DNA from: SAR324 cluster bacterium
Lineage (GTDB): Bacteria; SAR324; NAC60-12
Assembly (NCBI GenBank): GCA_015232315.1
Contig: JADFZZ010000006.1
Location: forward strand, 94,600 to 158,599
Reading direction: 5' to 3'
Length of the DNA stretch: 64,000 nucleotides
The notes beneath the pieces were generated by a model that was not told where the DNA came from, did no database searches, and saw only the letters and a list, made by a program, of their open reading frames with translations. The position numbers and the translations under genes were made by a program. Within the stretch, counting starts at the first letter, position 1. Every line of letters begins with the position of its first letter. This document shows, in pieces, positions 11,607 to 61,286 of the stretch.

Positions 11607-11686
11607 TACAGGCTTCAGTTTTGTAAATACTTGTATTATTGTCCATCCCTTTCATGTGTTTTGTTAATTTCTTTAGAGAAAGTAAT

Positions 11687-12376
11687 ATGAAACGATTAAC
11701 TATTCTGGAATGGATCTCATATCTGTCTCTGGCTGGATGCGGGATCTGGATTTTTGTGGCGCCCATTGAATCGGAAATGGGATTTATTCAGAAAATAATG
11801 TATTTGCATTTGCCTTCAGTTCTGGTCACATATCTGGCTTTTTTTGTGGCCTTTGCCTGCAGTATTGCTTATTTGTGGAAACGGGACATTGTTTATGATC
11901 AGGTAGCCCGGTCTTCCGCGGAAGTCGGATTAATTTTTTGCGGGTTGGTTCTGGTAACAGGATCCATCTGGGGAAAACCAACATGGGGCACTTACTGGGT
12001 ATGGGACGCCAGGCTGACCACAACACTCATTCTGTTTATGATTTTTTCAGGTTATTTCCTGCTACGGATGTTTGCGACAGACCACGAACAGCAAGCAAGA
12101 CTTGCTGCAATTCTGGCGATTGTGGGATTTCTTGATATTCCTATCGTTCACCAGTCTGTCAAATGGTGGCGAACATTGCATCAGCCCACGACCTTGTTTA
12201 AAACAGAAAATGGTCAGGCTGCGGCATCTATTCCCAATGAACTGCTGATGCCACTCATGGCCTCGATGCTGGCGGCGTTAGTGTTTTACGTATTTCTGTT
12301 TTTAATGCGGTATGAGGTGGAAAAACGCCATCATGAACTTCAGGAAAAAATTGCGGATCAGCATTTTCATTCATAA
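11687..12376 (+). CDS. ccmC: Cytochrome c-type biogenesis heme exporter protein CcmC
   Basis: Tryptophan-rich WWD motif WGKPTWGTYWVWDARLTTTLILF. Multi-TM protein of ~230 aa. Start moved to the internal ATG at 11687 (MKRLTILEW...) preceded by a weak RBS. The ORF track's 11639 start adds an unlikely N-terminus. Confidence 0.8.
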   Translation: MKRLTILEWISYLSLAGCGIWIFVAPIESEMGFIQKIMYLHLPSVLVTYLAFFVAFACSIAYLWKRDIVYDQVARSSAEVGLIFCGLVLVTGSIWGKPTWGTYWVWDARLTTTLILFMIFSGYFLLRMFATDHEQQARLAAILAIVGFLDIPIVHQSVKWWRTLHQPTTLFKTENGQAAASIPNELLMPLMASMLAALVFYVFLFLMRYEVEKRHHELQEKIADQHFHS

Positions 12377-12396
12377 ACTATTGCCAAGGTGTTTTT

Positions 12397-12546
12397 ATGC
12401 CAATGAATCTCGATTATGTCCTTGCTTCATACGGAATTACATGTGGAGTTTTTTTGATTTACATCGTTGTGATGAAATTAAAATTACGTGAATATAACAA
12501 ACAGATGGGGGCGCACCCTGAATCAGAAAATGGAGACAAATTATGA
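12397..12546 (+). CDS. ccmD: Small single-TM protein, probable heme exporter protein CcmD (49 aa; absent from the ORF track because it is under 60 aa)
   Basis: ORF ATG at 12397, TGA at 12544-12546, translating MPMNLDYVLASYGITCGVFLIYIVVMKLKLREYNKQMGAHPESENGDKL. One hydrophobic helix followed by basic residues. It lies between ccmC and ccmE and overlaps the ccmE start codon (ATGA), the canonical position and size for ccmD. Confidence 0.5.
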   Translation: MPMNLDYVLASYGITCGVFLIYIVVMKLKLREYNKQMGAHPESENGDKL

Positions 12547-12977
12547 AAACAAAATATAAATTTTTAATTGGCGGACTAGTTGTATTCGGCGCGATTGTGG
12601 CACTGTCCATTGTTGGGCTTCAGGAAATGACGGTCTTTTTTTATACACCTCAGGAAATTCTGGCCGCGCCAGATGATTTTCAGGAAAAAACAATTCGAAT
12701 TGGTGCCATGGTGGAGAAGGGATCTATCGATTGGGATGCTGGAAAAATTAAACTGGCATTCAGAATGACAGAAGACTCTCAACATTATATTCCTGTAGTA
12801 TATCATGGGGTCAAACCTGATATGTTCAAAGAAGGACAGGGGGTTGTGGTGCAGGGGCAACTTGAGGGAGATACTTTTTATGCGGATGAATTACTGGTGA
12901 AACATAGCGAAGATTATAAACTCGAAGCGGGTGACCATAAAAATAAACAAGAAATGTACAAATCTTTGATGCAGTAA
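12543..12977 (+). CDS. ccmE: Cytochrome c-type biogenesis protein CcmE (periplasmic heme chaperone)
   Basis: N-terminal TM anchor then an OB-fold region with the conserved FRMTED-like and LVKHSEDY (heme-binding His) segments. 144 aa, typical CcmE size. Confidence 0.85.
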   Translation: MKTKYKFLIGGLVVFGAIVALSIVGLQEMTVFFYTPQEILAAPDDFQEKTIRIGAMVEKGSIDWDAGKIKLAFRMTEDSQHYIPVVYHGVKPDMFKEGQGVVVQGQLEGDTFYADELLVKHSEDYKLEAGDHKNKQEMYKSLMQ

Positions 12978-12992
12978 CCCCGGTCTCTTCTC

Positions 12993-15209
12993 ATGTCTGC
13001 CATTATCCGGGAAATCAAACAGCGTCTTGGGGATTTGCTGGAAACAGATCCCCGAATCCGCAATCGGCTGTTAGCAACAGTTGTTCTGTTGTTTTTGATC
13101 ATTTTTCTTGTTTTTTTTGATATCCAACAGGGATTTTCAGAATGGGAAAATATCAATTCCAAATTGAGCATTTTTGTAGCTCTCAACATCAATCTGGTGT
13201 TGTTGGTTCTGGTATTTTATCTCATTCTCAAAAACATTCTGAAACTGGCCTATGAACGTCACAAGCATGCTATTGGCGTTAATTTAAAAACAAAACTGAT
13301 CATTTCATTTCTCCTCCTCTCATTTCCAGCAACAATTTTCCATTTGTTCGCCAGTGGTTTTATCGCCTCAACACTGGAAAACTGGCTCACTGGTCAGCAT
13401 AAATCCGTCATACATAATGCTCAGAAAGTTGCGGATGCTTATCATCGAAATCTGAAAAACATCATGGATTTACAAGGGTGGGTGGTTGAAGCGAACCTTC
13501 AGCGTCATCCTGAACTTCTGGAATATCCCTCTTCACTGGATCATATTCTTACCAAGGAAATGGGGGAAGGGATTATTCTTTATAATCAGAATCATGAAAT
13601 GATGTATCAGGCATTGCGCAATACAGATTCCCAGAAATACTGGAAACCTTTGTCATCGACAGAATGGGAACAAATTGATATAGCGCCGGTTGCCTGGCTG
13701 GTAGAAGAATTGGAGGATCGGTTTATTTATCGTCATTTAAGAAATATGAAAGTCAGGGAACAGCGTTGGATACTGGAAATATTTCTGCCGGCCACCAAAA
13801 GTGTGACATTGGCCATCAATGAAATTGCTGAACAGGAACAGAATTCCAAGGTGATTTTTGAGTCGGAACAATTGGTCAAACAATACTATGTCATCATCTT
13901 TCTGTTCATGACCTTGTTTATCATTTTTGTGGCAATCTGGCTTGCTTTCTATCTGGCGCGGGGGTTTGTGAATCCCATTGAAAAACTTGCGATCGCGACC
14001 CAGCAGGTTGCTGAGGGGGCGTTGGGATATCAGGTCGAGAAATCAACCATGATGCTTGATCGTGATTTTGAGTTATTGATTGATTCGTTCAACTCCATGA
14101 GTAATCAATTGCTCGAAAATCAGTTGGCGTTAGCTCAGACCACGGAAAATCTTAGAAAAAGCCATATAATTCTTGAAGAACACACACGGTTTGTGGAACT
14201 GGTGCTGGAAAATATAAAAACCGGAGTGATGTCTGTTGATATGGAAGGAAGGGTTAATGGGTTGAACCGGGCGGCATTGTCGTTGCTGGAAGTTAAAATG
14301 AAAGATTATCACAATATCCATTATAGGGATTTATTATCCACGGATGCTCTGGAACCTCTGGATGAAATGTTCCACCAGATTCAGCAACAAACAGATTTCA
14401 CCATATCAAGAAATTTGAGTATGACCAAAAGCGGAGTGCCGGTTCATGTTTCTATGACCGCGTTGATTTTAAAAAATCCGGAAGGTAATACCGAAGGGAT
14501 GATTGCTGTGTTTGAAAATATTACGGAAATACAACGCTTGCAGCGGGCACGAGCATGGCGTGAAGTCGCACGCAGAATTGCTCATGAAATCAAAAATCCT
14601 TTAACCCCCATTCAGCTTTCTGCAGAAAGAATCCGGCATAAATACAGCCGATTGATTGAGGATGGAGATACGCTGGATAAATCAACGAAAACTATTATTC
14701 GGGAAGTAGAACAGCTTAAAAAAATGGTCAGTGAGTTTTCAAAATTCGCACGATTGCCTGAATCTAATCCTCAACAAGACAATCTCAATGACATTATTGA
14801 GGAAACAGTCCAATTGTATCATGCGATTCCACCGGAAATTGTTTTAAAAACCAGACTTTCACCCAAGCTTCCCAGATTTTCCGTGGACCGTGAACAGATC
14901 AAACGTGTGTTTATTAATCTCATTGACAATGCGATTGCCGCTATTGATAAGAGTGGTGAAATTCTGATACAGACAGAATATGATGCTGTGTTTAAAATCG
15001 TTCGCATTGATGTGATTGACTCTGGTCCCGGAATTGATCCTGCCATCCTTAATCGTTTATTTGAACCCTATGCGACCACAAAAAAACATGGGACAGGTTT
15101 GGGGTTAACCATTGCGAGTCAAATTATCTCGGATCATCAGGGATTTATTCGCCACAAAAAACCGAAAAATGGAGGAGCCTGCTTTTCAATTGAACTACCT
15201 GCTGTGTAA
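12993..15209 (+). CDS. NtrY-like sensor histidine kinase (multi-TM N-terminus, HAMP, PAS, HisKA, HATPase_c)
   Basis: H-box HEIKNPLTPIQLSAE, N/G boxes DNAIAAI, DSGPGI and GTGLGLTI. Four N-terminal TM segments and ~740 aa length match the NtrY architecture. No response regulator gene is adjacent. Confidence 0.8.
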   Translation: MSAIIREIKQRLGDLLETDPRIRNRLLATVVLLFLIIFLVFFDIQQGFSEWENINSKLSIFVALNINLVLLVLVFYLILKNILKLAYERHKHAIGVNLKTKLIISFLLLSFPATIFHLFASGFIASTLENWLTGQHKSVIHNAQKVADAYHRNLKNIMDLQGWVVEANLQRHPELLEYPSSLDHILTKEMGEGIILYNQNHEMMYQALRNTDSQKYWKPLSSTEWEQIDIAPVAWLVEELEDRFIYRHLRNMKVREQRWILEIFLPATKSVTLAINEIAEQEQNSKVIFESEQLVKQYYVIIFLFMTLFIIFVAIWLAFYLARGFVNPIEKLAIATQQVAEGALGYQVEKSTMMLDRDFELLIDSFNSMSNQLLENQLALAQTTENLRKSHIILEEHTRFVELVLENIKTGVMSVDMEGRVNGLNRAALSLLEVKMKDYHNIHYRDLLSTDALEPLDEMFHQIQQQTDFTISRNLSMTKSGVPVHVSMTALILKNPEGNTEGMIAVFENITEIQRLQRARAWREVARRIAHEIKNPLTPIQLSAERIRHKYSRLIEDGDTLDKSTKTIIREVEQLKKMVSEFSKFARLPESNPQQDNLNDIIEETVQLYHAIPPEIVLKTRLSPKLPRFSVDREQIKRVFINLIDNAIAAIDKSGEILIQTEYDAVFKIVRIDVIDSGPGIDPAILNRLFEPYATTKKHGTGLGLTIASQIISDHQGFIRHKKPKNGGACFSIELPAV

Positions 15210-17870: not shown

Positions 17871-17951
17871 ATATTTTATAATTGTGTTTCTCTGATGTGC
17901 GGTTTTTCCAGACTACTAACCAGAAATTCTTTTGCAAGGCCGCATGATTCC

Positions 17952-20738
17952 ATGAGGGCTGTAATTAGTTTTTTTGTTATCATTTTCTGGTTGTTGCCGC
18001 TACAAAATTTATTTGCCCAGAATAATGACTGGCCTCATTATAAAATTGAGGTTCACTATCACGATGAATCCAGGGTGTTGCAAGGAAAATGTTCAATCAC
18101 CTTTAACCCTCAGATTTATTCTGGACGTGAATTGATAGTGAGTTTGCCTATGAACCGTTTTGCTTCGATTGATCACCGGGGCACACGTAAAATTTTGGAA
18201 ACTCCTGTTTTTGCATTAGATTCTTACAGCAGACTGAAAGATGATCCTTTGTTTCCCTATGGGTTCCAAAAAGGATTTACCAAGATTGACTCTCTTACAG
18301 ATACCAACAACCGGCCAATTCCATTTTCCATCGAGAATAACCCGGATCTGCCTGTTGGATACAGCACGGAACATGGACTATTACGAGTTTCTCTTGAAGA
18401 GGCAATTCCTGAAAATACGCTTGTTTTTGAATTTACTACCAAATTGCCGGTACGGTTTCAGGACGGACTTGTCTTTAAGGAATTGATGGTAGTTGAATGG
18501 CACCCAGTTTTGCTGTCCTACAAGCATGGAACATGGATAAAGGATATGATGGAACCATCTCCTGGAATCTATGAAGTCATGTGGACTGCTGATACTACAG
18601 GACTTTTAATCACTTCGGCTGGAGATCTGGAATACGGCCAAGCCAGGCAACATGTCAAACTTGAACAAGTCCAGCCGCTCAAATATTTTCCACTGATTTT
18701 CTCACCGAATTATTCTCGATTGAATACTGGACATCCGGTAATCGAGTCCTATTATTTTTCAGAAGATCTACGTCGTGCCCAATTACTACAGATCTGGGGG
18801 GAAGAATTTCTTGATTATATGGCCTCTGAATTTGATTTGAAGCAACCGTGGGACAAAATCAGAATAGTGGAGGTGAGAGGCAATTATGAAGATATCAGGG
18901 TTGTCAATAATCTCATATTGGTCACGATTCCTCATTACAAACGCAGCACCTTTATGGACAGGCGAGTATTGGGCTTTTTTTCGCGTGGTATGGCAGAATT
19001 ATGGTTTGGTGAGAAGGTTTGGGCCAATGAGGATACGCAATTATGGTTGCATATGGGACTGCCAGCCTTTTTCAGTCTGAAATTTTTTGAATATAAATAT
19101 GGGCTTGACGCTAGAATTTTTGATTTTTTTGACTGGCTGAATCCTCACTATCGGGAGCACTTTTTTGAAAGCATGGTGCGCGGAGTGAATCCGGCTTTGG
19201 AAGTACCGATTATGTCTAAAATTTCAAAGTTATCCGACTATCGGGTCTATCTGAAATTTGCGACTTATAAGACAGCATTGGTATTTTCCATGTTACAGTA
19301 TCTGACCGGAAATGCTGCTTTCAGGAAAGGACTTCGTCATTTTTTTGAAAATAATCAGTATCAGGTGGTGACCTTAAAGGATATTCATCAATCTATGGAG
19401 CAAATGTATCCTGAACCGCTGGATTGGTTTTTTTTGCAATGGTTCTATACCACAGATACAATGGATTACGGGATTCGTGAATTCACGTATGATGAATTGC
19501 CAGCGGGAGGATATGAAGTCAGGGTTGTTATTGAAAAAAAAGACAAAGGACAGATGCCGGTTGATGTTGTTATTGAAACCGAAGATGAGCAGGTGATCCA
19601 TAAACGCGCATTGGGAAATCAGGATATTGAGATGATCCGATTTATTACCGTCTCTCCTCCTGTATCCATATCTTTGGATCCTGATGAAATATTATTGGAG
19701 ACTGATAGACAAAACAACCAATCATTTCATTATTTCAGAGTCCGTTTTGCGTTTGACTGGCAGAAAAACAGGGAAATTCTGATCACGTTGGTTCCTAGAG
19801 GAAGCAGTAATGCATTTGATGGCAACCATATTGGTTTGGAAACCAGACATGTTATTGGTGATTATATCTATAATGTGACACCTGGCTATGGAACAAAAAA
19901 CGAACAGCTTACCTATCAATCCTCTGTTGAACGAAGGAATTTGTTGGGAATTAAGGGGTTTGTCGCCAATGTTAATCTTTCCCGGATTGGAGGTATTTTA
20001 TCGAAAGGAGTGGGACTCCTTTATAGTTCGCCTCAACATCAGGAAAAATACTCTTACAATTATGCCGTCAATCTGGCCCAGCAAGCAGCTTTTAAAGCCA
20101 GAAAAACGTCGTCAGGTATCTCTTCAGATATCATTGAAACAGGGGATACCAGCAATATTTCCATATCACATACCAGCAACATTGGATTTGGAAATATATA
20201 TTATCTGGAATTCAATCTGGGATTCGAAAAACCAGTTCTCGCATTGGGGTCTGATTTTGACTACACACTTTGGACTGCTAAAATCCAGCATGCGATCAAA
20301 ACAGGTTTTCGTAAAAGAATTGACTGGGAATGGATAGGGGGAACGACCCAAGGAACCAGTCCATTACAGAAACATCACCAACTTGGCAGTCCAACGGTAT
20401 TGAGAGGTTATCCCCAAAGGACAATCCTGCGGGATGAAAATTTGCTGGCAATGCGGTGTGATTTTTCATTTCCGGTTATTTCTTCACAGTGGTGGGGGGA
20501 TATCTCATCACTTGGAGTTTTAGGAGGTATTTTTTATGATATGGGTAAAGTTTGGGGTAATGATGTGAATCCTGCGGATGTACCACTTCGTCAGGATGTT
20601 GGTGTTGGTCTGGTATGGAACATCAATGCCGTTTCATTGGCAGAAGCCCCCTTGAAAATTGAAGTTGCCTACCCTCTCAATGATCCGGAATTTACCAAGC
20701 CACAGCTTATTCTATTTGAAGTATTAAGCATTTTTTAA
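17952..20738 (+). CDS. Large outer-membrane protein with N-terminal gluzincin/M1-peptidase-like domain (zinc motif degenerate) and C-terminal beta-barrel
   Basis: Start set at the internal ATG at 17952, giving signal peptide MRAVISFFVIIFWLLPLQNLFAQ. The segment GMAELWFGEKVWANEDTQLWLHMGL resembles the M1 HExxH-x18-E region but lacks the two His. C-terminal ~350 aa are alternating beta-strand-like and end in ...FEVLSIF. Confidence 0.5.
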   Translation: MRAVISFFVIIFWLLPLQNLFAQNNDWPHYKIEVHYHDESRVLQGKCSITFNPQIYSGRELIVSLPMNRFASIDHRGTRKILETPVFALDSYSRLKDDPLFPYGFQKGFTKIDSLTDTNNRPIPFSIENNPDLPVGYSTEHGLLRVSLEEAIPENTLVFEFTTKLPVRFQDGLVFKELMVVEWHPVLLSYKHGTWIKDMMEPSPGIYEVMWTADTTGLLITSAGDLEYGQARQHVKLEQVQPLKYFPLIFSPNYSRLNTGHPVIESYYFSEDLRRAQLLQIWGEEFLDYMASEFDLKQPWDKIRIVEVRGNYEDIRVVNNLILVTIPHYKRSTFMDRRVLGFFSRGMAELWFGEKVWANEDTQLWLHMGLPAFFSLKFFEYKYGLDARIFDFFDWLNPHYREHFFESMVRGVNPALEVPIMSKISKLSDYRVYLKFATYKTALVFSMLQYLTGNAAFRKGLRHFFENNQYQVVTLKDIHQSMEQMYPEPLDWFFLQWFYTTDTMDYGIREFTYDELPAGGYEVRVVIEKKDKGQMPVDVVIETEDEQVIHKRALGNQDIEMIRFITVSPPVSISLDPDEILLETDRQNNQSFHYFRVRFAFDWQKNREILITLVPRGSSNAFDGNHIGLETRHVIGDYIYNVTPGYGTKNEQLTYQSSVERRNLLGIKGFVANVNLSRIGGILSKGVGLLYSSPQHQEKYSYNYAVNLAQQAAFKARKTSSGISSDIIETGDTSNISISHTSNIGFGNIYYLEFNLGFEKPVLALGSDFDYTLWTAKIQHAIKTGFRKRIDWEWIGGTTQGTSPLQKHHQLGSPTVLRGYPQRTILRDENLLAMRCDFSFPVISSQWWGDISSLGVLGGIFYDMGKVWGNDVNPADVPLRQDVGVGLVWNINAVSLAEAPLKIEVAYPLNDPEFTKPQLILFEVLSIF

Positions 20739-31434: not shown

Positions 31435-33858
31435 TCACGGAATAAACGGTACAAAGGATTTGAGTCTCGCTTGTTCATCTTTACTCAAAATATGATCTGA
31501 TCGTAAAACATCAATTATTTTTTCATGCTCTCTGTGTCCCATTACATCCACTCCATCATATCCAAGCATCACTCGTATTAATCGTCGGTAAATATTTTTA
31601 GGGGTTTCAAGCATTCTTTGCGTGAACCGGATGAAGGGTTCGGCGTTTCTTGGAATATCAAAAGATTGATTTGAATCATCAAAATGATATTTTTGTCCAT
31701 GAGAATCAAAATATCCATAGGGCATGAATTTCATTTGTAAAAAGTTCATGATAAGATCTCTGGCATCCTGACTGCTAAGAACTTCCTCGAGATAATCCTG
31801 TTCTGATTCTGTGGAGTTAGGATCAAATGCTGATTCCAAGCGTTCCATATAGTCAACCACAACATGGGGTTGTTCAAGAACTTTCAATAACGCCAGCGAG
31901 CGTTCTGAGCCTATCTTGGAGCATGCATCTTTAAGCCGACGCATCACATCGGAGATAAAGGGTTCAAAGCTTGCGCCTGTTGTTTTCTTTGTTAATTCAA
32001 CAATTGATGGTGAGGCGAAAGCGTCTTGGACAACGGCGGTCTGTGCGGCCGCGACCTGTTTTTGTGAGGATTCAAATGCTGCGGCGAGTTTAGTTTTTTC
32101 CTGTAACTCATTCAATCGGAGACTTATCTGATCCTGGATTTGTGACATTTGCGTGTGTAATTCTTCACAAAACATTTTTTCTTTTTTTGAATTATCCAAC
32201 AAAACATTATCAATAAACCAATCAAGATCAGAGGCCATGTTGCTAATTTTTTTAAGCAAAGGATCTGGTGCAGTGGAGTGTTCTTTCAAAATTTGGCTGA
32301 CAGATTCAATAAATAGAGATGGTGTGCTGGTTGATTTATAGCATGCCAGGACTTTCTGATAGACAATAAAAATAGTTTTGATGGCTTCAGTCATCAAGGA
32401 AAAGCTACTGGTAACATTTCCGAGTGCGATGCAGGCAGAAGTGAGTTCTGCCTGATCTTCGTAAGCTTCTCGAAGTAATTTTCTGCTGGTGGTGGGTGAC
32501 AGGGACATGATATTGTCCAGATTTTTGATGGTACCAATAATTTTTTCATCATAATGGTTAATATCTTCACCTGCCTGCTCCAGAATTTTCAAATCATTGA
32601 GGAGTCCATTCTCAATATTTTTCTGGAACAGACCTGCCTGACAAATCACTTGTTGCAATTTTTGAATGTGTTCTTTTCTTGAATCAAAAACATTCAGACT
32701 TTTTCTGAGCAGTCCATGGATGACTGTAAGTGCCTTATTTAAAAAATCGGGTAACAATTGAGACGTCGTGGAAAGTTGATACACTTTTCCGAAAGATATG
32801 GACAAATTGTGAAGCAGTAACGCCATTTTCCTTAAATCATTGTCCATCGAAGAGAGTGTTAAAACAAAAAATTGCAAAAGTTTCATCTCTCTAGTAACTT
32901 GTCGTAAAAATTGCTCGACAACCGATTCTGGTTCTTTTGAACGGGCTTGGGATAATTCAACCAGAATATCTGAACGTTCACGAAGAAATCTCACGGACTC
33001 CAGTGGAATATAATATTCACGGAAACGGATCCATAGTTCTTCCAAGGTTTCTTTTTTGAGATGAATGCTATGCCGCAGTAAAGAATTAGATGATTCTGAT
33101 TCATAGGTGCTGATTTTTAATTCAAGCTTGCCAAGAGTCATAAAAACATCAGAAACATTGGTTGGTACAATTTCTTGTGCAGATTGTTGTTTTAATACTC
33201 CTGAAAAATATTGTTGCTGTATCCTGGTCAGAGTTTGAACTTCCTTGAAGTATTTCTGGATATTTTGCAAATCGTTCAATGAAAATGTGTAATTACTTTT
33301 GCTCCATTGGGTTTGCTTCATGAGTTGACTGCAAAGCTGTTGAATGCTGTTACATAAACCCAGTATGGTCGTCTTTTGGGCAATCGTGATGCTCACAGGA
33401 AGTGAAAGATAGGTAAACAGGTTTTTTCGCTCAAGATTATCTTTTATGATCTGGGCTTCCTGACCCGATTGTTTAATTTTTTGTAAAATACTGATTCCTT
33501 CTGGAAAAACATGGCTGATTCCGTATTCGACATGAAAATTAATGCTGTATATCAGATTTTCGATATTTTTTATCAACGATAAAAAAAAATCTGATTGAAG
33601 CTCAAAATGTCGTGGAGTTCGACATTTTTCGTTGATTTCATTCATGAGTTTATTGATCTGATCCAATGCCATTGCAATGTGTGTCTGGTCATCTTGATGC
33701 AAGACACACAAAGTTGGTTCCAGAATGTTTTTTACAAAGTTATTGATTTCAAGAACTTGATGTTGCGCTTGTTGAATGGGAAAGATTGTCTGTTTATTTT
33801 CTCTGATAACAGACTGCATATTTTTTAAACGATTCAAGACTTCAAAATTATCAGACAC
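31435..33858 (-). CDS. Large (807 aa) all-alpha-helical hypothetical protein, no signal peptide
   Basis: Long uninterrupted ORF rich in L/Q/K/E/S with coiled-coil/helical-repeat character. No recognisable enzymatic motif. Its stop abuts (1 nt) the convergent small barrel gene. Confidence 0.5.
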   Translation of the reverse strand: MSDNFEVLNRLKNMQSVIRENKQTIFPIQQAQHQVLEINNFVKNILEPTLCVLHQDDQTHIAMALDQINKLMNEINEKCRTPRHFELQSDFFLSLIKNIENLIYSINFHVEYGISHVFPEGISILQKIKQSGQEAQIIKDNLERKNLFTYLSLPVSITIAQKTTILGLCNSIQQLCSQLMKQTQWSKSNYTFSLNDLQNIQKYFKEVQTLTRIQQQYFSGVLKQQSAQEIVPTNVSDVFMTLGKLELKISTYESESSNSLLRHSIHLKKETLEELWIRFREYYIPLESVRFLRERSDILVELSQARSKEPESVVEQFLRQVTREMKLLQFFVLTLSSMDNDLRKMALLLHNLSISFGKVYQLSTTSQLLPDFLNKALTVIHGLLRKSLNVFDSRKEHIQKLQQVICQAGLFQKNIENGLLNDLKILEQAGEDINHYDEKIIGTIKNLDNIMSLSPTTSRKLLREAYEDQAELTSACIALGNVTSSFSLMTEAIKTIFIVYQKVLACYKSTSTPSLFIESVSQILKEHSTAPDPLLKKISNMASDLDWFIDNVLLDNSKKEKMFCEELHTQMSQIQDQISLRLNELQEKTKLAAAFESSQKQVAAAQTAVVQDAFASPSIVELTKKTTGASFEPFISDVMRRLKDACSKIGSERSLALLKVLEQPHVVVDYMERLESAFDPNSTESEQDYLEEVLSSQDARDLIMNFLQMKFMPYGYFDSHGQKYHFDDSNQSFDIPRNAEPFIRFTQRMLETPKNIYRRLIRVMLGYDGVDVMGHREHEKIIDVLRSDHILSKDEQARLKSFVPFIP

Positions 33859-47250: not shown

Positions 47251-49545
47251 TTATGATTGTCTGCGAAGATCATATTTCTTGCGTGTTTCCTGGTTAGACA
47301 ACACTTCATACGCATTTTTAATCTGTAGTGTCATCTGCTCTGCCTGCTGTTTTACCCATTCAAAATCCGAACTTTGATGACGATCAGGATGATACTCTTT
47401 CAGTTTTTTATAGAAAGCTTTTTTAATGTCATCTGCACTGGCAGATTTTGGAACTCCGAGAATTTCATAGTAATCAGGTTTAATGCTTTCTGAATTCTTT
47501 TCCATTTTCGGGGGAGGATCTTCTTTTTTTTGTTCCTGCTGTTGTTTTTCAAATTTAAAACTCCGGAGAGTCTGCAAAATAAACAAAGTTTGTGAGGTGA
47601 GTTGATTATAATTTGCGTTGGGAGATGACGCTTTTTTTTGAATAATGCGTAATTCAGCCTCGAAATCCAGGAACTGTGTGCCATATTTTTGATGAATGTC
47701 CGCTTTTTGTGCCAGTTTAAGAAATTCCATGGTTTTGGACCAAGTCTCCTCATAGTGTTTAGGATTACCAAGGGGTTTTTGTGAGGTCGCTTGTTGTTGT
47801 TTAATTTTTGTATGCAATGGCGGTTTGAGTTTGGGTTCATCGTCATCCGGCTCCATTTTGAACCGGTGTATCCACAAATGTCGGGATCGATAGGCAAATA
47901 TTCCTGCTCCTGCAAGGATTGAAAGTGCCACCATAGTGGTCAAAATATCCCATGCAAGATTTTGCTGGTCATGGGTTTCCACCTCATCAAGCAATGAAAG
48001 AGCCTGAGGGTGTTCAGGTGCGAGTTTCAGCGCATCATTGAGCAAATTTTTTGCCACAGTCCAGTTGCTGGAACGCATCCACTTTTGAGCACTCTGGATT
48101 TTCAGTTCAATTTGTGATTCTTTTTCAATGAACTCAATTTGTTGCCTGGCCTCACTGTAAAACTTACTTTGTTCCGGTACCTGTTGAAATAATTGAATTG
48201 CCTGCTGGGAATCGGCGTTCTTCATGGCTGTTTGAGCCTGTTCCATTAAAATCTGATCCTGATGCTCTTTAATTCGTTGAAGTGCGTCCATCGCTTCAGG
48301 ATGTTGAGGGGATAGAACCAGAATATCATCAACCCAACGTTGGGCTTCCTGCCATTGTCCTGCGATTTCAGCCGCATTGAGGCTGTCCAGTAAGGATGAT
48401 AATTGGTTGTTGGTCAAGGTTGTTGCGGGAATAGGCAGAATGTCAGGAAGTTCATCCAGATGGTTACGGTATCTCCGGGCTGTTTCATTGGCGCCCGCTA
48501 ATTGAAGTTTCCGAATATAATCTTTGGGATCTTCATGTGTGACTGTGGAAGATACCACCATTTTTTGCTCAGGTGTAACGGTCACAATATATTTTCCTGT
48601 TGGACTCACAGCCAGAGCATTGGCGTGCGCCAAAGCCAGTTTATTCAAAATCTGCCCATCTTTTTTGATAATATAAGCAGAAAATTCATTGGATTTATTC
48701 CTGGTTGTGATCACCATGATTTTATCGTCATAAACAGGATACAGTCCCAAAGCCTGCTCATCTTTCAGATTGGCTGAAATCTGATGGATTTTAATTCTAC
48801 TTTTCACATGTCCCCATACAAGATTGTTTTCACTATCGAGGGACAGCAGAATATTTGGGCGCACAAAGTAAGCGCCAACGACAGGAAAATGATGATAATC
48901 AATTTCTGCCAGTTTGTCTGATTGATAGGGGGCGTAGGTTAGAATTCGGTTGTTATGGGGAAAGAACACGGCCAATAGTTGTTGTTCCGGAGAATAAGCA
49001 AATCCGGAAGCTGGCATTTCACTTTTTAAAATTACACGTGATTGCGGTGTGTTTGTCTGGAGTTCATGAAAATTCAAGTCATCAATCCACCTCAGTGATT
49101 TATCAGGAAAATTGAAAGACGGGCGGGCTATGTGGGATCCCTGATACTCAAAAACTTGATGACTAACTGGATCAACAGGCTGGGAAGAAACAGAAATCGC
49201 ATCGATGTTCCATATCTGGATCTTGTTTTGATGAGCCAATACCAGTTGCTGTAGATAGGGAGCAAAAGTTAAAAACTGAAAATTTTCACCACGGGATTTG
49301 AAATGAGAAATTTCTTTAGCGGTTTGGCGATCATAAAGATATATTTCGGTCTTGCCATTGATGACCAGTCCTGCGGCTATAAGCGACTCATCATAGCTGA
49401 TCGCAAGCGAAGCAGAAGCAGGTAATTTGATCTCCTGAACTGTCTGGAGAAAAGTTGTCGGGGTTTCCGCTGTTGTGGACATGGCCGATAACAAGCAAAG
49501 TCCAATAGCGGTAATCCATGAGAACACATATTTATTGAGAGACAT
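47251..49545 (-). CDS. Membrane-anchored protein with N-terminal beta-propeller-like region, TPR repeats and a C-terminal J domain (DnaJ-like co-chaperone)
   Basis: C-terminal J domain DYYEILGVPKSASADDIKKAFYKKLKEYHPDRH (HPD tripeptide present). Signal/anchor at N-terminus, a TM near residue 545 (ILTTMVALSILAGAGIFAY) and TPR-like helices between. Start set at the internal Met (MSLNKYVF...) to avoid overlap with the UXS gene. Confidence 0.6.
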   Translation of the reverse strand: MSLNKYVFSWITAIGLCLLSAMSTTAETPTTFLQTVQEIKLPASASLAISYDESLIAAGLVINGKTEIYLYDRQTAKEISHFKSRGENFQFLTFAPYLQQLVLAHQNKIQIWNIDAISVSSQPVDPVSHQVFEYQGSHIARPSFNFPDKSLRWIDDLNFHELQTNTPQSRVILKSEMPASGFAYSPEQQLLAVFFPHNNRILTYAPYQSDKLAEIDYHHFPVVGAYFVRPNILLSLDSENNLVWGHVKSRIKIHQISANLKDEQALGLYPVYDDKIMVITTRNKSNEFSAYIIKKDGQILNKLALAHANALAVSPTGKYIVTVTPEQKMVVSSTVTHEDPKDYIRKLQLAGANETARRYRNHLDELPDILPIPATTLTNNQLSSLLDSLNAAEIAGQWQEAQRWVDDILVLSPQHPEAMDALQRIKEHQDQILMEQAQTAMKNADSQQAIQLFQQVPEQSKFYSEARQQIEFIEKESQIELKIQSAQKWMRSSNWTVAKNLLNDALKLAPEHPQALSLLDEVETHDQQNLAWDILTTMVALSILAGAGIFAYRSRHLWIHRFKMEPDDDEPKLKPPLHTKIKQQQATSQKPLGNPKHYEETWSKTMEFLKLAQKADIHQKYGTQFLDFEAELRIIQKKASSPNANYNQLTSQTLFILQTLRSFKFEKQQQEQKKEDPPPKMEKNSESIKPDYYEILGVPKSASADDIKKAFYKKLKEYHPDRHQSSDFEWVKQQAEQMTLQIKNAYEVLSNQETRKKYDLRRQS

Positions 49546-49555
49546 AAGGCCATTG

Positions 49556-50494
49556 TTATGTACTGCTGAGAATGCGATCAAAATAAGCAATGGTGTGTTT
49601 CAAGCCCTCATCCAGAGAAACTATTGGTTCCCAGCCAAGTTCTTTTTTTGCGAGGGAAATATCAGGTTTCCTTCGCGTCGGGTCATCCTGACGCCGGTCA
49701 ATTTGTTCAATCACAGATTTTGAATTGGTCAAGTTGATGACTTTTCGGGCCAATTCCATCATAGTGAATTCTCCAGGATTACCGATATTGACAGGTCCAG
49801 TAAAATTGTCCTTGTTCATCATGCGCATGATAACTTCTACCAGATCAGAAACATATGAAAAAGATCGAGTTTGTTCACCATCACCGTGAAGCACCAAAGG
49901 TTGCCCTTTCAAGGCGGCAACAATAAAATTACTGACGACCCTGCCATCTTCAAGATGCATACGTGGACCATAAGTGTTAAAAATACGGACAATTTTTGTA
50001 TCCACATGATTTTGTCGATGATAATCCATCATAAGAGTTTCTGCGACTCTCTTCCCTTCGTCATAACAACTCCTGATTCCAATGGGATTGACAGACCCCC
50101 AGTAGTTTTCAGTTTGGGGATGGATTTCTGGATCTCCATAAATTTCTGATGTGGATGCTTGAAGTATCCTGGCTTTTACCCGTTTAGCGAGTCCAAGCAT
50201 ATTGATTGCACCCATGATGCTGGTTTTAATCGTTTTGACGGGATTGTATTGGTAATGTACGGGTGACGCCGGGCATGCAAAATTAAAGATCCAGTCAACT
50301 TCCAACAGAATTGGTTCAACCACATCATGACGAATCAGTTCAAATTGGGGGTTGTCGAGCAAGTGAGCGATGTTTCGTTTTTGTCCTGTGTAAAAATTAT
50401 CCAGGCAAATCACTTCATGCCCATCGTCAATTAAGCGGTCACATAAAAATGATCCGATAAATCCCGCACCACCAGTGACTAATACGCGTTTCAT
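49556..50494 (-). CDS. UDP-glucuronate decarboxylase (UDP-xylose synthase), SDR family
   Basis: N-terminal [45 protein letters not shown], typical of UXS/ArnA-C enzymes. Catalytic YxxxK present (YDEGKR). Confidence 0.85.
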
Positions 50495-56667: not shown

Positions 56668-58011
56668 ATGAAAGGGCGATGGTTGTTAGCGGGGGTTATT
56701 TTATTGAGTCAGGTTTTTGTCTTAGCGGCTCAGGAAAAACTGGATGATGGTTTATATGCTAAAATGGAAACAGGCAAAGGCCTGATTTTGATAAGATTGT
56801 TCTATGAAAAAGCACCCATGACCGTTGCTAACTTTATCGGCTTGGCTGAAGGTAAAAAAGCATGGATTGATCCCATCAATGGCGAATCCAAAAATACAAA
56901 ATTTTATGATGGTCTTACATTTCATCGTGTCGTGAAGGATTTTGTGATTCAGGGGGGGGATCCTTTAGGCAATGGAAGTGGTGGTCCAGGGTATCAGTTT
57001 GGGGATGAGTTCAATGAGGATCTCAAACACGACAAGCCGGGAATTCTATCAATGGCTAATGCCGGACCTGGTACAAATGGAAGTCAGTTTTTCATCACAC
57101 ACAAGGCGACGCCATGGCTGGACAACCGACATTCTGTTTTTGGTGAGGTTGTACAGGGAATGGATGTGGTGCTGAAGATTGAACAAGGTGATTTGATTAA
57201 ATCGGTGACGATTCTCAGGGAAGGAAGCAAGGCCAAGGCCTTTGATATAGCGGAAATTGATAAAAAGGCACAAAAAGACGCAGAAAAACAGGCGGAAGCC
57301 AACAAAAAAACACTTCCCTCTTTTTCCGGTGTGATTGACCCGCAAAGAGTTCCATCCGCAGAACAGACCGAGGTGGATGAAGTGGCGCTGGACATGCTTG
57401 TGATTACCTATAAAGGTGCTAAAACACCTAAGCCACATATATATTATGATAAAGCCGGGGCCTTGGACGTCTCAAAAAAATTAGTTCAACTGGCTCGGCA
57501 AAAAAATGGAGATTTCCGTGATCTTATCCAGAAATTTTCGGACTTACCCCAACAAACTACGGTTCCTGTATTGAAAAAGTCCGACCCTCAATTGCCCGCG
57601 TTTCTGCATACTGCGTTTCGATTGAAAGAAGGACAGGTGAGTGATCCCATTGATAGTCCAATGGGGTATTTGCTTTTTAAAAGAATTCCGTTGGAATATG
57701 CAAATGCCAGTCATATCCTGATTTCTTATCAAGGTGCTGTGGGTTCAAAACAGAAACGTACCAAGGATGAAGCTATGGAGCGGGCTCGCCAGGTTCTAAA
57801 AGATGCGTTGGCAAAAAAAGATTTTGCGGAACTTGCCAAAACTTATTCTGATGGCCCAACAGCGCCGAATGGTGGTCAATTGGGAAAATTCGCAAGAGGT
57901 ATGATGGTTCCTTCCTTTGAGGATGAAGTGTTTCGAACAAAATCAGGTGATGTCAGCGCCAATATTGTAGAAACTCCTTTTGGTTACCACATTATAAAAA
58001 GAGAGGAATGA
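56668..58011 (+). CDS. Secreted dual PPIase: cyclophilin domain, degenerate parvulin-like domain, C-terminal parvulin domain
   Basis: Signal peptide (WLLAGVILLSQVFVLAAQ). Cyclophilin core FHRVVKDFVIQGGDPLGNGSGGPGYQFGDEF...SMANAGPGTNGSQFFIT. C-terminal parvulin SHILISYQGA...GGQLGKFARGMMVPSFEDEVF...PFGYHIIKRE. Confidence 0.8.
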   Translation: MKGRWLLAGVILLSQVFVLAAQEKLDDGLYAKMETGKGLILIRLFYEKAPMTVANFIGLAEGKKAWIDPINGESKNTKFYDGLTFHRVVKDFVIQGGDPLGNGSGGPGYQFGDEFNEDLKHDKPGILSMANAGPGTNGSQFFITHKATPWLDNRHSVFGEVVQGMDVVLKIEQGDLIKSVTILREGSKAKAFDIAEIDKKAQKDAEKQAEANKKTLPSFSGVIDPQRVPSAEQTEVDEVALDMLVITYKGAKTPKPHIYYDKAGALDVSKKLVQLARQKNGDFRDLIQKFSDLPQQTTVPVLKKSDPQLPAFLHTAFRLKEGQVSDPIDSPMGYLLFKRIPLEYANASHILISYQGAVGSKQKRTKDEAMERARQVLKDALAKKDFAELAKTYSDGPTAPNGGQLGKFARGMMVPSFEDEVFRTKSGDVSANIVETPFGYHIIKREE

Positions 58012-61000
58012 AGTCTCTCTATCGGCGTATTGCTATTCTATTAGTACTTTTGTGCTGGGGGACTTCAGGATTAGGCAGTCCCGCGGAAAAAGGATTGTAT
58101 GCCGAAATCAATACACCGCAAGGAACGATCTGGATTGAATTATTTTTTGAAACAGCCCCTGTTTGGGTTGCCAATTTTGTCGGGCTGATCAATGAGACTC
58201 CTTCATGGAAGCTTCATTTTCCAAAGTCTGCGGGAAAATACTCAGAATCTATCCAGTTTGATCGGGTAATTCCCGGCTTGTTTGCTCAGGCGGGAAGTTC
58301 CTGGAATCTTGGCTATGTGATCTCTCCTGGAACTCAGGAACCTTTGTATCAGGAAAGTGCTGGCATGTTGTCCATGATCAACCGTGGCTCTTATGTGGAT
58401 CCCGGGCAATTCATAATCACTCATCAAGTCATTCCCAGATACGATGGAATCCATCCATTTTTTGGAAAAGTCATCGAGGGCCTGGATATCATTATAAAAA
58501 TGAGGCAGGGAATGCCTGTCACAGGGATAAGGATTGTGCCTGTGGGCGACAGGGCGGGTTCTTTTGATCCAGAACAATATGGACAACATATTTTTTATCA
58601 AACGGCTCTCATTCAATCCGGGATAGATTCGGCTTATTTTGAAAAGCCGGTTGATCCAGCTAAGATTCCTTCTCCCAATCAGCAAGTGGTTGATAATGTT
58701 TCGCTGGAATTGCTGGTCGTTGGATATCAGTCTGATGCGAATTCCCCTCCGTTGAATCTTTCACGGGACCAGGCACAACACCTGGCAACTCAATTGACTG
58801 ATGCCGGCCGACGAAAAGAAGTAGATTTTCAGGAATTGATTCTCAGGCATTCAACCTTACCTCAGCATAATATAATTCCTTCTCTTCAGTATTCAGATTC
58901 TCTTCCTAGTTTTTTGTATGATGCGTTTTCATTGAGACTTGGTCAGGTGAGTGCCCCGGTTGATTCTCCACTTGGATTTGTAATTTATAAAAGGGTATCT
59001 CCAGTAAATTTTGAGATAAATCAAATTTTGATCACTCATCGTCAAAGTGACCCGGTGCAATCCAGGAGTCGCATGGAAGCCTTGGAATTGGCTGGTCAGA
59101 TATTGGAAGAAATCCAATCGACACAATATTACAAAATAAACAACGATGTTTTTTCTATTCTCCAGTCGGTAGAAATTCCCAGAGAATATTTAGCCCGCTT
59201 AAAAAGTCTGAATGGACGGAATTTTCGTAAAAAACATAAATTTTTATGTGCGGTTCGCCAGGCAATGTATCCAATATCTACAAAAGAATATTCAATTATT
59301 AAAAGTTTTTTAACGTCATTTCCTCAAGTAAAGGTGAGCGCAGAAAAATTGAAAGAATTGTCGGAAATGGATATCTCATCCCAGACCCTTGAGGCATTGA
59401 TCATTAACAATGATCGTGTCTATTTAGATCAGAACCAGTTTTTTTGTGGACTTGCCGAAACGTTGGAGACACTGGAAAATGAACATTTCAGTATGCAGAT
59501 TCTGGGTTATTCAGATTTTGGTGTTAAGTTCAAAATCACCCCAAGCACTCTTGAAAAAATTAAAAATAATAGTGGTTTTTATCAGCTCTTGGTGAATCTT
59601 GAAACAATGAGAGGTCAACAGTTTTTATCAGAAAACACACTGTTAGATGCAATTGAAAAACAGGTTGGAAATGAGATTAAAAACCGCTTTTCGATTATCG
59701 TATTACAACATGTGGAGCGAAAATTTGAGTTAACGGAAGATTCCATTGAACAGATTCAGGAATCTCATGATTTTGCAGGATTTCTTCAAAAATTGCGTTT
59801 TTTAGATAAAAAGGATTTTCAGAATAAGTATGATTTTGATGCTTCTTTAAGAACTGCTTTAGGACAGAACTCTGCGGATCGTTATAAGAAACTGATCTAC
59901 AAACATGTTAAAAAAGTCTTTTCAATGTCGAGTACAATCATGTCCGCATTGGATGAATCTCTGTTCCCTGGTGATGTGGCTGTGGCGTTGAGTGCTCTTC
60001 AAGCACACAAATATTCCACAAAAAATGAATTATGGGCGACTATTCAAAAGATACTTGGAACTAATCCTTTATGGATGTATCAAAGTTTTTTTGAAACTTA
60101 TATTGAGCATAAAATCTTTTTAAGAAGTACAGATCTTTCCAGAATGCAAAAAGGGCTTTCCTCAAAGCAGATAACAGAAAAATTATCTGGGGTTCTGAAT
60201 CAGTTTTATAAAGGGCGCTATGCCTTTATAGGCGCGATAGAGAGAAGAATTGGAAAAGATGCGACAAATCGCTATAAAACGTTGCTGCTTAAAAAGGCCC
60301 AAACTAAAAATGGGTATAAGTTGACATCCACGATGCTTCAGGAAATTCTGAATAATCAGGATTTCGATACTATCATTGGGAAACTTCAACCAATTATGGA
60401 TATGGAGTTCGATGGAGATATTGCCTTTGAACAAACTATTTCTCAGTATCTTGATGCGGAATCGCTGCAAAACTACAGACCTTTGTTGAAGGAATATACT
60501 GAATCCTACTTCAAACTTTCAGATGGTTTGTTCAGTGATATTAAAAAAATACCTGATAAAGAACAGTTTTTCAAAAAACTGGCGGCAATCATCAATCAGG
60601 AGTACACCTCTAAAACTGCGTTAGTTTCAACGGTTCAGGCATCATTAGGACCATACTTGTTTTTGTGGTATAAAAATGTTTTTGATGAATCTGTTCAAAC
60701 CATTTACAGAATAAATTCTGATGTGATTGAACAAATTGCGAAGGATGGTGATTTTGACAGGATTCTTCAGGGGGTGAAAAAAGTGGAAGGTATTCCTTTT
60801 GCGACTTTGGCTTTATTTAAGGATGCTCTGGTAAATATGATAGGGGTTGAAGCGACTGAACGATATATAGACCTCTTGGCTCAACAAGCATCAATACCCG
60901 TTCCATTGATTCTTTCTTCCACATCAATGCGTAGCATCCAGAAAGAAGGGGATACCGATGTTTTGTTAAACAAATTGAAGTTGTTGATGGATCAAACATT

Positions 61001-61286
61001 TAAAAGTTCGACGGAATTGGCTGAAACTCTGACTGAAACTCTGGGGCATAGTATGGCAACATGCTATTCCTCATTAGTGCGGGATTATTCTCATTATGGC
61101 TTTGCTGAACTTGCTCAAAAATACTCAGAAGCTTTATCATCAGTTCAGGGAGGTCAATTGGGAATGATATCACAAGGTATGTTGATGCCTGAAATGGAAA
61201 ATGAAATTTTGCGTCTGGAATCGGAGGAAATAAGTGATATTATTGAATCAAACACAGGGTTTCATATCATTAAAAGACTTCGATAA
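58008..61286 (+). CDS. Large secreted paralogue: degenerate cyclophilin-like domain, parvulin-like domain, about six ~100-aa helical repeats, C-terminal parvulin domain
   Basis: ATGA overlap with the upstream gene. Cyclophilin-like region with QAGS in place of QGGD (FDRVIPGLFAQAGSSWNLGYV). Internal repeats carrying G-x4-RY-x2-LL and DFD-x2-L-x2-L motifs (e.g. ALGQNSADRYKKLIYKHV, RIGKDATNRYKTLLLKKA, MIGVEATERYIDLLAQQA). C-terminal parvulin GGQLGMISQGMLMPEMENEIL...TGFHIIKRL. Confidence 0.6.
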   Translation: MKSLYRRIAILLVLLCWGTSGLGSPAEKGLYAEINTPQGTIWIELFFETAPVWVANFVGLINETPSWKLHFPKSAGKYSESIQFDRVIPGLFAQAGSSWNLGYVISPGTQEPLYQESAGMLSMINRGSYVDPGQFIITHQVIPRYDGIHPFFGKVIEGLDIIIKMRQGMPVTGIRIVPVGDRAGSFDPEQYGQHIFYQTALIQSGIDSAYFEKPVDPAKIPSPNQQVVDNVSLELLVVGYQSDANSPPLNLSRDQAQHLATQLTDAGRRKEVDFQELILRHSTLPQHNIIPSLQYSDSLPSFLYDAFSLRLGQVSAPVDSPLGFVIYKRVSPVNFEINQILITHRQSDPVQSRSRMEALELAGQILEEIQSTQYYKINNDVFSILQSVEIPREYLARLKSLNGRNFRKKHKFLCAVRQAMYPISTKEYSIIKSFLTSFPQVKVSAEKLKELSEMDISSQTLEALIINNDRVYLDQNQFFCGLAETLETLENEHFSMQILGYSDFGVKFKITPSTLEKIKNNSGFYQLLVNLETMRGQQFLSENTLLDAIEKQVGNEIKNRFSIIVLQHVERKFELTEDSIEQIQESHDFAGFLQKLRFLDKKDFQNKYDFDASLRTALGQNSADRYKKLIYKHVKKVFSMSSTIMSALDESLFPGDVAVALSALQAHKYSTKNELWATIQKILGTNPLWMYQSFFETYIEHKIFLRSTDLSRMQKGLSSKQITEKLSGVLNQFYKGRYAFIGAIERRIGKDATNRYKTLLLKKAQTKNGYKLTSTMLQEILNNQDFDTIIGKLQPIMDMEFDGDIAFEQTISQYLDAESLQNYRPLLKEYTESYFKLSDGLFSDIKKIPDKEQFFKKLAAIINQEYTSKTALVSTVQASLGPYLFLWYKNVFDESVQTIYRINSDVIEQIAKDGDFDRILQGVKKVEGIPFATLALFKDALVNMIGVEATERYIDLLAQQASIPVPLILSSTSMRSIQKEGDTDVLLNKLKLLMDQTFKSSTELAETLTETLGHSMATCYSSLVRDYSHYGFAELAQKYSEALSSVQGGQLGMISQGMLMPEMENEILRLESEEISDIIESNTGFHIIKRLR

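Follow-up and report, generated by a model that had tools for sequence, protein, structure and literature searches.

The two tandem genes described here lie on the forward strand of a 64-kb stretch of DNA (the window) from a SAR324 cluster bacterium, and each encodes a protein in which a cyclophilin domain is followed by two parvulin domains, both of these being families of peptidylprolyl isomerases (PPIases). Gene 2 (1092 amino acids, aa) is a lineage-specific tandem paralogue of the shorter gene 1, and its C-terminal parvulin domain is split, between the helices α1 and α2, by an array of ten units of about 65 aa. Judged from profile searches, this unit is a promiscuous domain, which is nested inside unrelated cytoplasmic and envelope proteins. 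Further, gene 2, inclusive of the array, is under purifying selection.

The split parvulin and the ten-unit array of gene 2

The features of gene 2 are listed below; those of individual units were obtained with a hidden Markov model (HMM), and AF2 denotes AlphaFold2.

58008..61286 (+): gene 2, open reading frame (ORF) of 1092 aa; diverged tandem paralogue of gene 1 with a nested repeat array
58101..58511 (+): degenerate cyclophilin domain, aa 32-168 (Pfam Pro_isomerase, E=1.3e-16)
58689..58997 (+): middle parvulin-like domain, aa ~228-330, with neither catalytic His (tblastn with the first parvulin of gene 1)
59007..59120 (+): split parvulin, N-terminal piece (β1 + α1), aa 334-371 (alignment to the gene 1 family)
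59121..61094 (+): ten-unit array, ~65 aa per unit, aa 372-1029, between parvulin α1 and α2 (autocorrelation, HMM)
59121..59318 (+): unit 1, aa 372-437 (HMM match aa 375-433, 7e-14)
59319..59519 (+): unit 2, aa 438-504 (HMM match aa 442-501, 5e-10)
59520..59714 (+): unit 3, aa 505-569 (HMM match aa 508-569, 3e-15)
59715..59909 (+): unit 4, aa 570-634 (HMM match aa 573-634, 5e-17; in AF2 model)
59910..60107 (+): unit 5, aa 635-700 (HMM match aa 638-697, 7e-12; in AF2 model)
60108..60305 (+): unit 6, aa 701-766 (HMM match aa 705-764, 8e-16; in AF2 model)
60306..60500 (+): unit 7, aa 767-831 (HMM match aa 770-830, 1e-14)
60501..60695 (+): unit 8, aa 832-896, second half most degenerate (HMM match aa 835-890, 1e-9)
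60696..60896 (+): unit 9, aa 897-963 (HMM match aa 900-961, 4e-12)
60897..61094 (+): unit 10, aa 964-1029 (HMM match aa 968-1027, 4e-14)
61098..61283 (+): split parvulin, C-terminal piece (α2-α3-β2-α4-β3-β4), aa 1031-1092, ending in GFHIIKR (Pfam Rotamase)

The site of the insertion is evident from several comparisons. When the two proteins are compared by BLASTP, aa 26-379 of gene 1 correspond to aa 27-368 of gene 2 (34% identity) and aa 386-445 of gene 1 to aa 1032-1090 of gene 2 (47% identity), and in an alignment with 28 orthologues about 660 aa separate α1 from α2 of the C-terminal parvulin of gene 2. The Rotamase (PF00639) match in gene 1 (aa 349-446; 118 bits against a cutoff of 21.7, whole-protein E=3.7e-34) spans positions 1-96 of the 97 in the profile; the match in gene 2 (aa 1032-1090; 72 bits, same cutoff) spans just positions 36-95. 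The original prediction had placed the array before the terminal parvulin, but the BLASTP alignment and the truncated profile match locate it inside that domain, after α1, the interruption amounting to 663 aa. In a full-length AF2 model of gene 2, the cyclophilin domain and the middle parvulin are modelled confidently, as are the two parts of the split one, with values of the predicted local distance difference test (pLDDT) of 73-94. The N-terminal piece forms a strand (aa 334-343) and a helix (aa 355-371), the C-terminal piece (pLDDT 73-87) shows the canonical order of parvulin elements, and the middle domain, for which Pfam gives a weak Rotamase_2 match at aa 297-328, has a pLDDT of 84-94 and is 42% identical to its gene 1 counterpart (tblastn, E=3e-25).

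The repetitive nature of the inserted segment is supported by both autocorrelation and an HMM. In a BLOSUM-based autocorrelation of the insert, z reaches 7.9 in the peak at lag 65, 5.5 in each of the peaks at lags 130 and 132, and 10.8 in that at lag 197, but no more than 4.6 in any of 300 shuffles. Additionally, an HMM constructed from only six units of foreign proteins matches gene 2 at 10 positions (188.7 bits, E=4.3e-58), and after iteration all ten units are recognised at 1e-9 to 5e-17. The units are ~65-67 aa long and their pairwise identity is 7-31%. No internal repeats were seen when gene 2 was compared with itself by BLASTP; because the units are too diverged for this method, autocorrelation and HMMs were needed for their detection. 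At the DNA level the array contains neither repetition nor terminal repeats. The repeats reported earlier are thus statistically real, but they constitute ten units of ~65 aa rather than about six of ~100 aa, and the two motifs noted at that time both fall within the unit, where "G-x4-RY-x2-LL" corresponds to the α3-α4 junction (IGxxxxxxYKxLILKHA) and "DFD-x2-L" to the loop between α1 and α2. A possible three-unit super-repeat, suggested by the peak at lag 197 and by the presence of three units in a related protein of 'Deltaproteobacteria bacterium TL4' (hereafter TL4), was not supported by a permutation test by unit (p=0.18), and unit-to-unit matching of the array with the TL4 units gave an inconsistent cyclic order.

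The fold of the unit was modelled by AF2 from units 4-6 of gene 2, on the basis of an alignment with 61 rows, in which units of many proteins were combined. In this model (pLDDT 89.1; predicted template modelling score 0.69) each unit consists of a strand, two helices, a short strand and two further helices, a β-α-α-β-α-α fold that is predicted with confidence. A Foldseek search of the PDB with this model returned no match, and it also did not retrieve the entry 7ZOL, which is discussed below.

Occurrence of the unit in unrelated proteins

Word-indexed homology searches with gene 2 or its insert matched only a 96% identical copy, and it was an exhaustive HMMER search that revealed the relatives of the insert. 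Among 1.84 billion representative sequences, 28 proteins matched it at E<=1e-3. The unit is present in no fewer than 27 protein clusters besides that of gene 2 and also in one sequence deposited in the PDB, with one to 17 units per carrier protein. When the unit consensus and the gene 2 insert are compared with Pfam and NCBIfam, all models stay below their cutoffs. The Pfam family DUF2795 (PF11387) scores 16.7 bits on the consensus (cutoff 25) and does not match the insert, and of all carriers only one (P0124) touches the cutoff, at 25.7 bits. The likeness is weak and local, relating the α1-α2 region of the unit to positions 23-50 of the profile, and scores of 16.7-25.7 bits around a cutoff of 25 do not indicate membership. 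Hence, the suggestion that the repeat family is undescribed holds insofar as no curated model recognises it above cutoff, but the unit is not specific to gene 2.

The proteins harbouring this unit are diverse. In a SecA protein (P0143) the SecA_DEAD profile of 290 positions is stretched by units over 617 residues (aa 10-626), in an FMN_bind/RnfG-like protein (P0137) the FMN_bind profile of 77 positions is stretched over 168 residues (aa 144-311), and in another protein (P0148) the unit abuts the second half of σ70 region 2. Pfam further identifies, among the hosts, an S8 protease, PG_binding_1 proteins and LptA/OstA-like proteins. The unit is also present at positions 12503-12688 of one locus (L088), inside an HSP70 gene (11432-13711), and at positions 8897-9076 of another (L089), inside a Trypsin_2 gene (8582-10042). 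The Hsp70 and the trypsin-like protease adjoin, respectively, a unit-bearing TPR protein and a unit-bearing S8 protease, so that in each of these ~14-kb loci two genes carry the unit. Three LptA/OstA-family proteins of ~750 aa, viz. P0128 from TL4 and P0132/P0153 from the SAR324 metagenome-assembled genomes (MAGs) HQM11/HQM12, contain six units each at matching positions, one of them N-terminal and five ahead of the LptD_N/LptA domain. With these proteins, the unit has also entered the bridge protein of lipopolysaccharide transport, and as its positions match between TL4 and SAR324, these six-unit arrays look stably inherited. The named carriers comprise SAR324 MAGs from the series that includes the relatives of the window, TL4, Desulfobacter and a cyanobacterium.

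The one carrier with a deposited structure is the Cas7-11 protein of Desulfonema magnum (7ZOL/7ZOQ, chain B), where the unit profile matches deposited residues ~1034-1270 with E=3e-29. The match comprises at least three tandem units and is located in the Cas7.4 insertion region of the deposited chain; other Cas7-11 entries in the PDB gave no match at E<=10. The "insertion-1" and "insertion-2" of Cas7.4 have been described as large subdomains that are strikingly different between species, and the "tail" of insertion-1 was termed coiled coils, with no repeat family being defined (PMC9935389). As in gene 2, the units here form a lineage-specific insertion nested in a domain of the host protein, although the host protein and the cellular compartment are different. 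A literature search for in-frame insertion repeats in Desulfonema yielded nothing relevant.

Units from different genes and genomes share 32-65% protein identity, and their synonymous divergence (pS) is 0.43-0.96. A test for recent copying at the DNA level found no within-genome excess of similarity between units, no pairs with low synonymous divergence and no boundary repeats. The high pS values, the lack of a within-genome excess and the matching positions in the LptA-like proteins together argue against recent DNA-level transposition of the units.

Gene 1, its family and the origin of gene 2

The features of gene 1 and of the junction between the two genes are as follows.

56668..58011 (+): gene 1, ORF of 447 aa; secreted-type cyclophilin + parvulin + parvulin PPIase, the conserved ancestral copy
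56668..56730 (+): signal-peptide-like N-terminus of gene 1, aa 1-21, MKGRWLLAGVILLSQVFVLAA (inspection of sequence)
56758..57195 (+): cyclophilin domain of gene 1, aa 31-176, catalytic signature intact (Pfam Pro_isomerase, E=9.6e-46)
57355..57687 (+): middle parvulin-like domain of gene 1, aa ~230-340 (second Rotamase/Rotamase_2 stretch)
57700..58005 (+): C-terminal parvulin of gene 1, aa 345-446, canonical (SHILI ... SDGP ... GGxLG ... FGYHIIK; Pfam Rotamase and conservation)
58008..58011 (+): ATGA, shared by the stop codon of gene 1 and the start codon of gene 2, AGAGAGGAATGAAG, with GAGG 4-5 nt upstream
58008..58076 (+): signal-peptide-like N-terminus of gene 2, aa 1-23, MKSLYRRIAILLVLLCWGTSGLG (inspection of sequence)

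The two ORFs, their ATGA overlap and their signal-peptide-like N-termini had been described correctly in the original prediction, as had the domain composition of gene 1, which Pfam and the alignment confirm to be a cyclophilin domain, a degenerate parvulin-like middle domain and a C-terminal parvulin with GYHIIK, and the repetition of this architecture in gene 2 with QAGS in place of QGGD. In both N-termini a hydrophobic segment follows a short basic one, as in signal peptides of the Sec type, and the hydrophobic N-termini are conserved in the orthologues of gene 1. Genes 1 and 2 constitute a tandem pair, which is probably co-translated, of predicted secreted cyclophilin-parvulin-parvulin proteins.

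The cyclophilin domain of gene 1 scores 156.4 bits against Pro_isomerase (PF00160; cutoff 21.7), and the solved structure closest to it is 1W74 (E=5e-45). The motifs FHRV, QGGDP, SMANAG, GSQFFIT and WLD..H show little or no variation across the gene 1 family, and in all of its members the middle parvulin has no His at either catalytic position. Of the parvulin domains of genes 1 and 2, the one at the end of gene 1 is the sole canonical one. The 120 best matches to gene 1 are all ~436-506 aa long, 52-60% identical to it and contain both PF00160 and PF00639. The few named ones are from SAR324 or 'Deltaproteobacteria' MAGs and are annotated just as "peptidylprolyl isomerase". Based on these matches, the cyclophilin-parvulin-parvulin family is large, uniform and common in SAR324, and the earlier view that such a fusion is rare is not supported for this clade. 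A scan of contigs with the gene 1 family alignment recovered cyclophilin-domain relatives from Flavobacteriia, Spirochaetes and others, but as the patterns used were for cyclophilin only, this result is uninformative regarding the distribution of the fusion. Exact-phrase searches found no paper on a cyclophilin-parvulin fusion in the literature covered, and the search for work on SAR324 PPIases likewise found nothing relevant.

The paralogous origin of gene 2 is indicated by its distribution. In three other SAR324 genomes (loci L003, L004 and L005) the gene 1 orthologue is directly followed by a cinA-like gene and in two others (L001 and L002) by iPGM. Among the loci compared, a gene 2-type paralogue downstream of gene 1 is present only in the window, in another SAR324 MAG (L006) and in TL4 (L007). 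In L006, a 1092-aa copy of gene 2, which is 96% identical, is located between gene 1 and the cinA-like gene. In TL4, the order of genes is a 446-aa orthologue of gene 1 (63% identical to gene 1), a 683-aa cyclophilin-parvulin-parvulin protein (P0126) with three units at the insertion site of gene 2, the cinA-like gene and iPGM. However, the two PPIase genes of TL4 are separated by ~40 nt (7958-8001) and show no ATGA overlap, and thus the signal for translational coupling is not conserved. Because TL4 shares the synteny and has three units at the same site, the distribution is most simply explained by a single older event of duplication and unit insertion, which would have been followed by a change in unit number (three versus ten).

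The extent of divergence was examined using 139 alignment columns that are >=90% conserved in the gene 1 orthologues. Gene 2 deviates at 59 of these (42%), in agreement with the initial description of the second copy as degenerate, and P0126 at 42. Both deviate at 28 columns, where 17.8 are expected (p=1.5e-4), and in 5 of them the derived residue is the same, which speaks for a shared history of the two paralogues.

Comparison of gene 2 between the window and L006 revealed 74.5 synonymous and 44.5 non-synonymous differences, corresponding to a ratio of non-synonymous to synonymous substitution (dN/dS) of 0.154. The ratio is 0.150 for the insert (aa 369-1031) and 0.127 for aa 1-368 of gene 2, and based on this low value for the insert, the array is under selection as part of a functional protein. 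The genes in the middle of the 6.3-kb L006 contig show low ratios with respect to the window (0.15 for gene 2, 0.10 for the cinA-like gene), and its two ends (1-722, the tail of gene 1; 4775-6255, iPGM) show values of 0.4-0.55 and local indels. This pattern suggests noise in the assembly of contig ends or recombination, and these erratic values were left out as comparators.

In the window, the neighbours of the pair are a response regulator, a cinA-like gene and iPGM; those conserved across the gene 1 loci are the cinA-like gene, iPGM and UDP-glucose dehydrogenase. Neither in the window nor in the loci of the relatives do BAM or Lpt genes adjoin the pair. A tblastn search of the window found no parvulin or cyclophilin other than those of genes 1 and 2. 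Several other genes in the window are of separate interest. The 947-aa ORF at 17895-20738 (+) contains a Peptidase_M1 domain (aa 304-516, E=1e-12) and a C-terminal β-barrel of the Omp85 superfamily (aa 703-937, E=2e-9); this unusual peptidase-Omp85 fusion may be one of the "giant OM barrel genes" (OM, outer membrane) mentioned in the original prediction. For the ORFs at 8307-11606 (+; 1099 aa) and 31435-33858 (-; 807 aa), Pfam gives no match at E<=1e-5. In the 779-aa ORF at 47251-49590 (-), a DnaJ (J) domain is found at the C-terminal end (aa 706-774, E=3e-19), and the N-terminal part shows a weak β-propeller-like match.

Possible function of the pair and alternative interpretations

The PPIase domains of gene 2 have undergone extensive changes. 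Its cyclophilin domain, with 61.7 bits against Pro_isomerase (cutoff 21.7) and 2MVZ as the closest solved structure (E=1.9e-15), differs from the family in seven residues of the proline pocket (F60L, M61F, A101I, A103R, F113I, W121R and L122Y) and has lost a 5-aa loop. The numbering here is that of CypA, the catalytic and proline-pocket positions of which are R55, F60, M61, Q63, A101, N102, A103, Q111, F113, W121, L122 and H126. In the C-terminal parvulin of gene 2, the first catalytic His is changed to Gln (NQILITH) and the Asp of SDGP to Glu. These changes make a loss of activity in the PPIase domains of gene 2 plausible. However, the term "inactivated", which was applied earlier to the cyclophilin domain, is too strong, since the pocket changes and the loop deletion are accompanied by retention of the polar catalytic residues.

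Based on the above observations, we lean towards the interpretation that gene 2 encodes a weakly catalytic or non-catalytic partner of gene 1, with a binding or scaffolding role in the periplasm, in which the array would serve as an extended arm. According to this proposal, gene 1 would be a conserved periplasmic foldase of the SAR324 clade, with an active-looking cyclophilin, a His-less parvulin and a canonical parvulin. A tandem duplication of it in the sub-lineage comprising the window organism, the MAG with the 96% identical copy and TL4 would have given rise to gene 2, and an autonomous ~65-residue β-α-α-β-α-α module would then have entered the last parvulin at its α1-α2 loop, with three copies now present in TL4 and ten in the window organism. 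Gene 2 would subsequently have diverged fast, losing many family-invariant residues in domains of both PPIase types. Co-expressed with gene 1 and exported, its product could act as a client-binding or scaffold partner, in a way comparable to that of the inactive parvulins in SurA and PpiD, and its ten units would project as a long arm from a loop on the surface of the parvulin.

A number of observations weigh against this interpretation or parts of it. The cyclophilin domain of gene 2 retains the catalytic Arg, Gln, Asn, Gln and His (R55, Q63, N102, Q111 and H126) and could therefore still be active. In the full-length AF2 model the insert is poorly predicted, with pLDDT mostly <60, and the packing of the two parvulin pieces against each other, like the stacking of the units, is presumed. 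The neighbouring genes indicate no functional link to the pair. Lastly, the identity between gene 2 and P0126 (~29%) is lower than that of either protein to gene 1 (34% for gene 2, 47% for P0126), and thus the duplications and insertions at the same site could also have occurred independently.

An alternative interpretation is that the array is a neutral self-folding passenger of tolerant loops, akin to the in-frame palindromic elements of Rickettsia, and that gene 2 is a redundant, decaying duplicate. The nesting of the unit in unrelated and often essential domains (SecA_DEAD, FMN_bind, σ70 region 2, Hsp70 and Cas7.4), its presence in two neighbouring genes in each of two unrelated ~14-kb loci, the different copy numbers in orthologous hosts (3 versus 10) and the loss by gene 2 of 42% of the near-invariant residues of the family are all in line with this possibility. 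However, the dN/dS of 0.15 observed for the insert agrees poorly with a neutral passenger, and the retention of the HMM signature by all units, despite their being only 7-31% identical, points to long-term selection for the fold. Further, the array has no DNA-level or terminal repeats, pS between units of different genes is 0.43-0.96, copies within a genome are no closer than those of different genomes, and the six-unit LptA-like arrays of TL4 and SAR324 are found at matching positions. In view of these results, we consider this interpretation unlikely.

The same range of hosts, viz. parvulin, SecA, Hsp70, σ70 region 2, FMN_bind, Cas7.4 and S8 or trypsin-like proteases in carriers from SAR324, Desulfobacterota and cyanobacteria, could also be produced by a proliferating in-frame nesting module, which has settled many times in the surface loops of proteins unrelated to one another via an undescribed DNA-level or recombination mechanism. 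This remains a speculative proposal that is quite unlikely to be correct in this form; if true, the ten copies in gene 2 would represent the largest expansion so far observed within a catalytic domain.

It was also suggested originally that the pair is a dedicated periplasmic chaperone for outer-membrane proteins, functionally replacing SurA and PpiD. SurA of E. coli is a periplasmic chaperone comprised of an N-domain, an inactive parvulin P1, an active parvulin P2 and a C-terminal helix. Like SurA, gene 1 has tandem parvulins, the first without the catalytic His and the second canonical, so that its inactive-then-active order mirrors P1-P2; SurA is exported, as is predicted for gene 1 and consistent with the signal-peptide-like N-termini of both proteins, and a role in the folding of envelope proteins is plausible for SurA and the pair alike. 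The lack of any other parvulin in the 64-kb window and the occurrence of the unit in LptA/OstA-like envelope proteins of the same SAR324 lineage could be viewed similarly. However, genes 1 and 2 have a cyclophilin in the N-terminal position instead of the SurA_N/C chaperone core, no SurA_N-like domain is detected in them by Pfam, the C-terminal SurA helix is lacking, and gene 2 differs further by its nested array and its degenerate second parvulin. The SurA model (PRK10770) scores 44.2 bits on gene 1, where its match is limited to the active parvulin, and 26.5 bits on gene 2, against a cutoff of 394, and the PpiD model (NCBIfam PRK10788), at 18 bits, is far below its cutoff of 493, indicating that neither protein is a member of these families. 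The neighbouring genes are cinA-like, iPGM and UDP-glucose dehydrogenase rather than BAM or Lpt, the unit is found also in the cytoplasmic proteins SecA, Hsp70, σ70 and Cas7-11, and the absence of surA from a single 64-kb window is uninformative about the genome. A replacement of SurA/PpiD by this pair is thus improbable. Lastly, the window comes from a MAG, but an assembly chimera or a mis-called ORF is excluded as the explanation of gene 2, because an independent assembly contains the 1092-aa ORF with 96% identity and differences that are mostly synonymous, and a third genome has a three-unit version with identical synteny.

Other PPIases provide further points of comparison. In the literature searched, proteins with domains of two PPIase families are described only in the form of FKBP-cyclophilin chimeras (FCBP/CFBP), in a review from which parvulins are excluded (PMC6316441). 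Genes 1 and 2 resemble these in having two PPIase families in one polypeptide, a flexible linker and an occurrence in unicellular organisms, but the partner of the cyclophilin here is a pair of parvulins and neither protein has a Pfam match to FKBP. Proteins of the PrsA, PpiD and trigger factor type likewise combine a PPIase fold with helical non-catalytic modules, and inactive parvulins serve as binding modules in them. However, in these cases the parvulin is inserted in a helical chaperone domain, whereas in gene 2 it is the helical modules which are inserted in the parvulin, and based on Pfam these modules are unrelated to SurA_N-type domains.

PPIases and chaperone modules made of inactive parvulins are already known, and a periplasmic foldase with a diverged paralogue represents ordinary biology. 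What is new relative to the literature searched and the curated families is, firstly, the widespread cyclophilin-parvulin-parvulin architecture in SAR324, which is among the most abundant groups of bacteria in the deep ocean, and secondly, a compact module of ~65 residues, with a confidently predicted fold, that nests across unrelated proteins, for one of which a cryo-EM structure has been deposited. The module raises the question of its mode of spread. Its definition would clean up the "insertion" annotation in Cas7-11, SecA, Hsp70 and other proteins, and as a natural example of a domain that is tolerated in surface loops, it is also useful for protein engineering.

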